Below are positions 11,739 through 13,907 of a stretch of 39,925 nucleotides of DNA, in pieces. Both the position numbers and the translations under genes were made by a program. The stretch is from Elsinoe ampelina. Lineage: Eukaryota. The number at the start of each line of letters is the position of its first letter. The first letter of the stretch is position 1. Location of the stretch: contig ML992540.1 of the NCBI GenBank assembly GCA_010093995.1, forward strand, positions 1 to 39,925, given 5' to 3'. The notes below the pieces were generated by a model, which saw only the letters and a program-made list of their open reading frames with translations, was not told where the DNA came from and did no database searches.

Positions 11739-13907
11739 ATGGCAGCACCATCCATCCCAAATCTTGCCACACTGCGCGGCAGAGGAGGCGGACTCCGCGG
11801 ACGAGCTCGCGGCCGTGGTCAAAGCACCGAAGACGACGAAGCCAGCCAAGCGAGATTCCGGGATCAGACGATTCAGCAGACTGACAATGACGCGGCATCT
11901 TCAAGAATGTCGGCCGTGTCGCTTGGTTATCTGGAAGATCCATATGCCCAGGCGTTCGCCCCGTTTCCGCCACCACGTCGCTACCCACTCATCAACAGAG
12001 GTACATATGTACGCACTACCGCCATTGATTGCCTGATCAAGATCTTTCTACAGACGGACTATGGATCACCAAAGCAGATCATCTCACTGGGTGCCGGGTC
12101 TGATACACGGTTCTTCCGACTGCACCAAGTGGAGAATCTGATCTACCACGAGCTCGACTTTGCCGACAATACCTCTACGAAGATTTCCAAGATCAAGAAC
12201 AGTCAAGTCCTGAAAAACACGCTCAAAGATCCTCACGAACATGGGGATGGCTTCGAAGTCACCGTGTTCAGAGACTGTCTCTATTCCAAGAAGCTCAATA
12301 TCCACGCCCTCGACCTTCGTACACTTGTAGATCATCCCACCGAACAACCGCCACTACGCAACCTCAATCCCGATATCCCGACATTGATCCTCTCGGAATG
12401 TTGCCTCACATATCTTACGCTGGATGCATCAAACCAGATCCTTAAGTACATTTTGTACAAGTGGCTCACTCCCGCCACTCCGGTCGGAGTTGTTCTGTAC
12501 GAGCCAATCAAGCCTCTGGACGCTTTCGGCAAGACAATGTCCAGCAATCTCGCTTCCAGGAATATCGAGATGCCTTCGCTCAAGGCTCTGCCAACACTGC
12601 AATGCCATCGCAAACGTCTGCAGAATATCAGCACTTTCAAAGCTGGTGCTCGCACGGTCTACGACATATACGCCGGCGAGGTCAGGCCAGCAGAGCAGCT
12701 CTACGAAGAAATCATGTCAATACCCAAAAGCACGCTGAATCGCTACCAACACCCACGTATCCGCTTCAGCCTTGGCAGTACAGGTTGCCAGCAGTGCAAC
12801 GGGGACCATCGCCAGAAACATTGCCCGAACCCTTTGTGTCAGTCTTGTGGCGGACCGCATCGCGAATGTACTATTAGTCGCTGTGAAGTATGCGGCCAAG
12901 TTCATGGTGACGGCAATTGCACGATCGGGGGCTGCGCTGCGTGTGGCGAGATCCATCCACTTTACAAGTGCAAACTACAGGAGGATTTTACATCGGCCTA
13001 CCGGCGTAACAATCAGCATAGCGAGCAGTTCAAGAACGCGATAAAGCAGGGGAAACGAGAGAAGTCGCACCGACGACAAGAAGAAGCACGAACATTTCTC
13101 AGAAGCAACCCTGATCGGGCGCTTCCGGCTGCAGATCGCGAACAAGTCGATCGCCCAACTGGTCCACTTGTACCATGCACAGGAGGTGACAACCCGGAGC
13201 TGGACAAACTGATGGAAGGTCCATGTAAAATTTGCGGTGGTCTACATTGGCGCAAGGTTTGCCCGAACAGGGCAGCGTTGAAGCGGAAACAAAACGACAG
13301 TGTAGAAAAGACTGCCTCAGCAGCCGGTGAGACCAAAGGACCACGCAATATCCCACAGCTGGACGGCGCCAGCGATGAGCCAATTGGTACCACATCCGGC
13401 GACACCACGACCACACCCATCGAATCCGACGCCGACGACCTCATCGATCTCCGCACCCCTCCCCGTCCGACACCAAGCCCCAATTTCAACTTTTGGTCTC
13501 CTCCCTCAGCCACGCCCTCCCCTTCTACCGCTCCGGCCGGATCTGCCGAAAACCTTGACTACTCCGAGATGTGGATTCCTCCCGCCGAACGAGAGCGCGT
13601 GGAAAAGCTCGAATGGCTTGACGAGATCGAAGAATGGCAATTGCTCGCTAGCCATTACTGTGTAGTCTGGGGATGGCGCGACGGCGCGGCGCTGGACGAA
13701 ACAGCCGAGGTTTTCGACCGAGCCTGGACGGGGATTGGCGGTCATTGGCAGGAGAAGGAGCGCAAAGACGATGAGCTGCATTCCGAAGTGAGGAGGAAGG
13801 ACGCAGCCCCGGTACCGAAGAGGGATGTGGTCATGGTGCCGAGACCAAGGCTGTATGAGGATGACGAGGAGGAGAGGAAAAGGTTGGAGAGGATTAGGAA
13901 GAAGTGA
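11739..13907 (+). CDS. PPM1: Leucine carboxyl methyltransferase 1 (PP2A methyltransferase) with a large internal CCHC zinc-knuckle insertion
   Basis: LCM motifs '[25 protein letters not shown]', '[14 protein letters not shown]', '[14 protein letters not shown]', 'YHELDF', '[13 protein letters not shown]', 'LYEPI..DAFGKTM..NL..R' and C-terminal '[18 protein letters not shown]'. No kelch repeats, so not Ppm2/Tyw4. Confidence 0.9.
   Translation: [722 protein letters not shown]

Follow-up and report, generated by a model that had tools for sequence, protein, structure and literature searches.

Knuckle-like motifs within a leucine carboxyl methyltransferase: a probable lineage-specific loop expansion in the Ppm1 protein of an Elsinoe fungus

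How does a methyltransferase come to carry five knuckle-like motifs inside its catalytic domain, and what might they do there? The question is raised by a gene on contig ML992540.1 of Elsinoe ampelina, in the 39,925-nt stretch analysed here in its entirety (the window), which encodes a protein of the Ppm1/LCMT1 family interrupted by 296 additional residues. Ppm1/LCMT1 is an S-adenosylmethionine (SAM)-dependent methyltransferase acting on protein phosphatase 2A (PP2A), whose catalytic subunit it esterifies at the C-terminal leucine; to our knowledge, it regulates the assembly of PP2A holoenzymes, is highly conserved and has a domain architecture that is almost invariant across eukaryotes. We find that the insert is transcribed and retained in the mRNA unspliced, and consider it likely to be a lineage-specific expansion segment of a permissive surface loop in an otherwise ordinary Ppm1. 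Judged by sequence comparison, it is the knuckle-bearing insert that is new: the enzyme itself is known, and this form of the insert is not conserved even within the genus. The features of the gene are as follows.

11494..14121, forward strand: extent of the Ppm1 gene transcript, from contigs
11739..13907, forward strand: Ppm1/LCMT1-like coding sequence, one exon, 722 residues (P0001), from the open reading frame (ORF), Pfam and phmmer
11739..12680, forward strand: N-terminal enzyme part, comprising an RGG-rich tail and the LCM/SAM-methyltransferase core through strand 301-306 and helix 307-312
12681..13568, forward strand: in-frame insertion of 296 codons, residues 315-610, joining the last two core strands
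12786..12971, forward strand: array of four tandem CCHC-type knuckle-like motifs, found by regular expression
12786-12824, forward strand: first knuckle (K1), C-x2-C-x3-H-x4-C
12837-12869, forward strand: second knuckle (K2), C-x2-C-x3-H-x2-C
12882-12920, forward strand: third knuckle (K3), C-x2-C-x3-H-x4-C
12933-12971, forward strand: fourth knuckle (K4), C-x2-C-x3-H-x4-C
12966..13106, forward strand: long basic helix, residues 410-456, predicted by AlphaFold2 with a block pLDDT (predicted local distance difference test) of 78-93; its second half is alignable with Elsinoe fawcettii
13038..13568, forward strand: part homologous to the E. fawcettii insert, with the islands QLDGASD, FWSPP and DYSEMW (tblastn)
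13224..13262, forward strand: fifth knuckle (K5), C-x2-C-x3-H-x4-C, followed by a basic tail
13569..13907, forward strand: C-terminal LCM-fold part (helices 615-637, strand 640-647) and a species-specific charged tail

The enzyme and its expanded loop

What kind of enzyme is P0001? The gene occupies a stop-free forward-strand frame (11706-13907), whose first ATG at 11739 gives the 722-residue product. LCM (PF04072) is the sole Pfam family above its cutoff (67.7 bits against 22.3, residues 78-238). Among the sequences of solved structures, phmmer ranks human LCMT1 (3iei) at the top with an E-value of 3.6e-36, aligned in two colinear pieces: residues 19-281 of 3iei match 38-307 of P0001, and 279-327 match 606-652, leaving about 296-298 extra residues in P0001 between segments that directly abut each other in the solved enzymes. 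The next match is yeast PPM1 (1rjd; E 9.9e-25), and LCMT2/TYW4 (2zw9) reaches merely E 0.0028. Since the best matches are LCMT1 and PPM1, with LCMT2/TYW4 far weaker, P0001 is by sequence the Ppm1/LCMT1 orthologue of an Elsinoe-like fungus (Elsinoaceae, Dothideomycetes). It keeps 51 of the 51 invariant columns in an alignment of 53 homologues, including L117-G118-A119-G120, D122-T123-R124, E138, D140, D192, R194 and E220; GAGxDTR is presumably the SAM-binding motif. Together, this suggests that P0001 is probably an active Ppm1. Its RGG-rich N-terminus, which the original prediction had singled out, is present, but can hardly count as a special feature because the consensus of the 53 fungal homologues has one as well.

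The 888 nt at 12681-13568 translate into 296 residues with zero stops, the remaining five frames containing 5-11 stops each, and a stop-free frame arose in 1 of 20000 in-frame mononucleotide shuffles (analytic P 1.9e-5). This open stretch and the two-piece LCMT1 alignment substantiate the in-frame insertion of about 296 residues that had been proposed from the sequence. To place it in context, we took the loop as the segment between the columns of I310 and W612 and compared it across 92 homologues of 397-1264 residues in two alignments. It is normally 3-5 residues long: 80 of the 92 have five or fewer, four have 8-13, six have 21-80, and only P0001 (301) and E. fawcettii (232) exceed 100. Among relatives within the Myriangiales/Elsinoaceae, the lengths form a series of 8 (Myriangium), 13 (Sphaceloma murrayae), 35, 39, 76 (E. 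australis), 232 and 301. A further 1030 LCM proteins, all shorter than 397 residues and none above 51% identity to P0001, lack the length to accommodate such an insert alongside a full LCM domain; neither among them nor among the 92 did we find another LCM protein with a knuckle-bearing insert. The architecture is hence not a common one in annotated Ppm1 proteins. Likewise, our literature searches returned no work joining leucine carboxyl methyltransferase and zinc knuckles (LCMT1 with CCHC gave unrelated proteome and gene-list papers alone), nor any on Elsinoe together with PP2A. The earlier statement that no LCMT of this build has been described agrees with both searches.

Elsewhere in the family, P0035 (447 residues, JGI source), a distant Ppm1 homologue, has an unrelated, Glu-rich insert of 80 residues in the same loop, and two lichen-fungus proteins have 21-34 residues there. 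These cases indicate that the site tolerates insertions in several lineages. By sequence, the loop is an expansion hot spot in the lineage of P0001, and its knuckle-bearing form was seen only here.

Does the enzyme fold tolerate such an addition? In an AlphaFold2 model of P0001 built with 53 sequences (mean pLDDT 72.6), 10-residue blocks average 89-98 over residues 31-310 and 83-96 over 611-680. The insert leaves the core past strand 301-306 and helix 307-312, and the chain re-enters at helices 615-624 and 627-637, ahead of strand 640-647. The basic helix at 410-456 is the sole confident element within the insert (residues 412-460 contain 13 Lys/Arg), and residues 343-517 folded alone reach a mean pLDDT of 53. 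Foldseek returns 3iei_A (TM on target 0.76) and 3p71_T, from the LCMT-1/PP2A complex, as the best folds in the PDB, with TM values of 0.75-0.76. The LCM fold, a class I methyltransferase fold with a lid, is thus predicted to close around a mostly disordered insert, a point that the original prediction had proposed to check. The lid domain is described in a review (PMC8358657).

Could the motifs be genuine zinc knuckles? A six-frame regular-expression scan over the 39.9 kb window recovers all five, at the positions originally assigned to them, and just two further loose matches. The spacing C-x2-C-x3-H-x4-C that had been ascribed to most of them holds for four, whereas K2 reads C-x2-C-x3-H-x2-C; none of the five has the canonical zf-CCHC (PF00098) spacing C-x2-C-x4-H-x4-C. 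Cysteines are concentrated in the motifs, which contain 15 of the insert's 16, while the other 426 residues of P0001 have six. All 20 zinc-ligand positions are intact across the five knuckles. At the non-ligand positions, any two knuckles are identical at 6-10 of 27 nucleotides and 0-2 of 9 residues, a nucleotide identity that we judge to be near chance. Their sequences indicate that K1-K5 are not recent duplicates of one another. Intact ligands within an otherwise diverged sequence are the pattern expected of ligands that selection maintains or maintained until recently; the pattern is also compatible with an old array that was lost in E. fawcettii, or with a donor block that was already diverged. 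Because the 20 ligand positions are intact in motifs otherwise mutually unrelated, the array probably binds zinc.

Transcription of the insert

Is the insert part of the mature message? We placed contigs of four public runs (X1, X2, X4 and X7, from three studies) on positions 9500-15000; X2, X4 and X7 derive from two other studies than X1 and differ from the window by about 2%. The neighbouring gene for the RNA polymerase subunit Rpb5 (10564-11469, reverse strand; PF01191 and PF03871) provides a positive control for splicing: a 59-nt stretch at 11169-11227 is skipped in X1, X2 and X7, and its ends, CT..AC, correspond to GT..AG on the strand of the gene. None of the four runs has contigs over the intergenic DNA flanking the Ppm1 gene on either side, and neighbouring genes differ strongly in contig depth. 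The skipped intron, the uncovered gaps and the unequal depths together argue that the contigs derive from RNA.

For the Ppm1 gene, an X1 contig of 2644 nt covers 11494-14121 with no difference and no gap. X2 contigs begin at 11505 and finish at 14111, and those of X7 finish at 14091. Contigs of X2, X4 and X7 span both borders of the insert (12680/12681 and 13568/13569), with no indel listed, and in none of the four runs do the listed joints connect 12680 with 13569, compared with three in which the Rpb5 intron joint is seen. The insert is therefore transcribed and retained in the mRNA, and P0001 is most likely made with the insert translated. The 5′ leader within this transcript also contains a four-codon upstream ORF (ATG ... 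TAA; 11692-11706, forward strand), 33 nt ahead of the Ppm1 start.

These contigs bear on two alternative accounts of the insert, both of which the original prediction had left room for. In one, the 888 nt would constitute an exitron (GT at 12681-12682, AG at 13567-13568) that is normally spliced to yield a canonical Ppm1 of about 426 residues, the long form being a minor or regulated isoform. The length, a multiple of three, the borders GAG/GTCAGG ... CCGAG/ATG, and a CTTGAC located 10 nt ahead of the putative acceptor all lend themselves to this account, and removal would restore a loop of normal size. However, most introns in these fungi measure 50-100 nt. We judge the splice signals at 12681 and 13567-13568, GTCAGG paired with a GAG acceptor, to be weak. 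Moreover, the borders are bridged in all four runs by the same contig sets that reveal the neighbour's intron in three, no insert-free model of about 426 residues occurs among the homologues of 397-1264 residues, and the protein annotation in E. fawcettii runs straight through the homologous insert. An exitron as a significant isoform is accordingly very improbable to us. In the other account, the insert would be an artefact of the assembly or gene model, such as a chimeric join. Given the identical arrangement in contigs from four runs of three studies, three of them about 2% diverged, and a homologous insert at the same site in E. fawcettii, the chance of this is practically negligible. In short, the insert is present in assembled transcripts of independent material, which speaks both against obligate splicing as an exitron and against an error of assembly.

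Evolution, origin and possible role of the insert

How old is the insert? The closest relatives of P0001 are proteins from E. fawcettii (625 residues, 69% identity), S. murrayae (402 residues) and E. australis (537 residues). The first, annotated as 'Leucine carboxyl methyltransferase-like protein' (P0003), carries an insert at this position too. Its first ~25 residues are weakly alike (BLASTP, 10 of 24 identical, E 0.063), and a longer colinear stretch, 13038-13592 (tblastn, frame 1, E 5.6e-18, 29% over 191 columns), takes in the later portion of the basic helix, the stretch around K5 and the islands QLDGASD, FWSPP and DYSEMW. The four-knuckle array at 12786-12971, by contrast, has no E. fawcettii counterpart in any frame of the window DNA (tblastn), and K5 is degenerate in that species, its first cysteine being replaced. 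We also considered that the E. fawcettii segment might be a frameshifted version of the array; a test of alternative frames gave no support for this. The insert of E. australis is unrelated in sequence to that of P0001. With 69% identity to E. fawcettii in the core and 29-31% in the alignable insert, the sequences indicate that the insert evolves much faster than the core. The array would then be young and lineage-specific, acquired once the lineages had diverged or else since lost by E. fawcettii. On this comparison, it is most likely confined to this organism and fungi close to it, the helix and the short motifs being common to E. fawcettii.

Where could the knuckles have come from? A phmmer search with insert residues 1-203 against 1.84 billion representative proteins (E<=1e-3) gave two matches, neither of them Gag: the repeat protein P0094 and an unrelated repeat protein. 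No Gag/ORF1 protein or other donor was found among these representatives. In a word-indexed search with residues 312-610, the query itself was the sole match at E<=0.1, and the ESM Atlas held no usable look-alike of residues 340-520. P0094 (213 residues) consists of three repeats of ~50 residues, each ending in C-x2-C-x3-H-x4-C-P and resembling K5 (43% over 26 residues); by sequence, this K5-type variant exists elsewhere as a repeated module. Separately, we rejected the reading of the insert as an intein on the rules for intein ends, as its first residue is Val and its last ones, ahead of Met, are Ser-Glu; nor does Pfam give a Hint-type match.

The original prediction had raised the possibility of capture from a retroelement, whereby the Gag/ORF1 nucleocapsid region of a retrotransposon inserted into the loop, became exonised and gave rise to the array or to the entire insert. 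C-x2-C-x3-H-x4-C spacing does occur in the gag-like ORF1 of jockey-clade long interspersed elements (LINEs; PMC2330053), the array is absent from the closest orthologue, and the mutual divergence of the knuckles is what capture en bloc would predict. Against this stand the two phmmer matches, neither a Gag, and the lack of any Pfam match to Gag, reverse transcriptase, protease or integrase on P0001 or the insert. Nor did the window show a second copy of the insert, a target-site duplication or another mobile-element hallmark at or near it; Tandem Repeats Finder detected no tandem repeats in 12600-13650, and composition does not break, with a GC content of 0.557 in the insert and of 0.527 and 0.577 in the flanking gene parts. 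The absence of dinucleotide skew in the insert confirms the earlier remark that it shows no decay of the kind left by repeat-induced point mutation (RIP). The spacing, which had been taken as reminiscent of retroelements, is not diagnostic of them, since it is shared by cellular proteins: the weak Pfam matches are strongest for the eIF3g knuckle region (K5 at E 0.0097, K1 at E 0.32) and zf-CCHC_2, and two reports describe a CCHC finger starting C-x2-C in eIF3g (PMC8354637) and the x3 spacing in a Cryptococcus protein that also has an aspartic endopeptidase domain (PMC13732481). We therefore regard capture from a retroelement as improbable. A different history, in which array and helix form a recent zinc-dependent appendage, binding nucleic acid or ribonucleoprotein (RNP), from an unsampled donor gene, and tether the methyltransferase to RNA or chromatin so as to direct PP2A holoenzyme assembly to nuclear or RNP sites, appears unlikely to us, if less so. 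If true, this would be a case of a signalling enzyme gaining a targeting module through insertion into a loop of its catalytic domain.

What, then, does the insert do? Under the reading that we favour, a loop expansion, the loop between the last two core strands would have become an expansion segment within this fungal family, which here reaches 296 residues, stays in the mRNA and would be translated within the protein, PP2A methylation by P0001 presumably going on unchanged. The frame of the insert may be kept open mainly by the essential C-terminal part of the fold downstream: a stop or frameshift would remove the C-terminal helices and strand, for which reason an open frame is no proof that the insert has a function of its own. 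Taken to its end, this argument makes the whole insert, knuckles included, a neutral filler without function. In line with such a view, the loop has expanded repeatedly in relatives with unrelated sequence, the insert is far less conserved than the core (29-31% against 69% identity), E. fawcettii has no array and only a degenerate K5, most of the insert is predicted to be disordered, and nonsynonymous changes are not depleted in it (see below). Conversely, 20 of 20 ligand positions are intact in five motifs otherwise judged no more alike than chance, and QLDGASD, FWSPP and the basic helix persist between the two species. On balance, we rate a wholly functionless insert a serious contender, though a little short of an even chance. 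For the array by itself, the chances of its being a tolerated passenger without a role of its own seem to us about even. That array and basic helix act as a zinc-dependent nucleic-acid or nuclear tether for the enzyme is a possibility we hold more tentatively, and what probability remains falls to other roles. The insert may plausibly bind zinc or nucleic acid.

Several observations weigh against reading the expanded loop as a translated segment with working zinc knuckles. The runs bear no RNA label on record, so that their RNA nature has to be deduced from the intron removed next door and from the uncovered intergenic DNA, and contigs drop rare variants, such that a minor spliced isoform could escape. 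The support for the insert comes from sequence, contigs and a structural model. Pfam gives no zf-CCHC match at E<=1 on the whole of P0001 or on the insert, and no match at all for the four-knuckle array alone; K5 alone matches zf-CCHC_2 at 18.8 bits, below the cutoff of 27. Aromatic residues are usual in RNA-binding knuckles, and K1-K4, as read from the sequence, are without them. The knuckles score a pLDDT of 28-54, both in the full protein and alone, in models computed with neither metal nor alignment depth; with values below 55, AlphaFold2 lends no support to a knuckle fold. A conserved role is made less likely by the absence of the array from the nearest species. Finally, among the differences listed for the runs that are about 2% diverged (35 further differences lie outside this listing), the insert has five nonsynonymous and three synonymous changes, and the core (11739-12680) five and eight. 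These counts are indistinguishable from neutrality and only hint at weaker constraint on the insert. None of the insert's changes falls on a Cys or His of a motif.

Whichever reading holds, the locus presents a permissive loop that has grown stepwise in one fungal family and now carries an expressed cysteine-rich module. Should zinc and nucleic acid prove to be its ligands, the module would amount to a natural domain-insertion experiment, illustrating both the tolerance of LCMT1 to insertion and the grafting of a targeting function onto it. If it is a passenger, it would be a clean case of an ORF that stays open only for the sake of downstream translation, and a caution against equating 'stop-free' with 'functional'.

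Genomic surroundings and comparison with known systems

No transposon domains were seen among the neighbouring ORFs of the window; the neighbours are housekeeping genes. Besides the Rpb5 gene, we note the following.

5077-10236, forward strand: JmjC/PHD protein
14636-19357, reverse strand: ORF of 1573 residues with a Mcp5/Num1-type PH domain (PF12814)
20548-22215, forward strand: Uba4/MOCS3-like protein with ThiF and rhodanese parts
22346-26589, reverse strand: 5-oxoprolinase/hydantoinase gene over two stop-free frames
26861-28567, reverse strand: amino-acid permease
28978-30111, reverse strand: GH53 galactanase
32292-33536, reverse strand: second permease fragment

The C-terminal end of the 1573-residue ORF contains a short Asn/Gly/Thr-rich repeat (NATNATNATNGTSGTIGT...) at ~14700-14830, where differences of the diverged runs cluster. 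In the 5-oxoprolinase/hydantoinase gene, Hydantoinase_A lies upstream and Hydantoinase_B downstream, and the two frames meet near 23962-23965, most likely owing to an intron or a change of frame there.

How does the insert-bearing enzyme compare with what is known? The motifs share with CCHC zinc knuckles the Cys-Cys-His-Cys order, the C-x2-C start and a frequent Gly after the second Cys; in K1 and K5, the final Cys is also followed by a Pro. They differ from these in having x3 where the canonical form has x4, in scoring below Pfam cutoffs, and, in K1-K4, in lacking the aromatics. With E. fawcettii P0003, the protein has in common the site and the start of the insert as well as its second half, including basic helix, K5 region and islands, whereas P0003 lacks the four-knuckle array, has lost the first Cys of K5 and has a shorter loop (232 against 301 residues). 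When set beside the solved Ppm1/LCMT1 enzymes (3iei, 3p71 and 1rjd), P0001 is alike in its LCM domain, its colinearity, its invariant residues and its predicted fold, and differs in its 296-residue insert with five CCHC-type motifs and its charged C-terminal tail.

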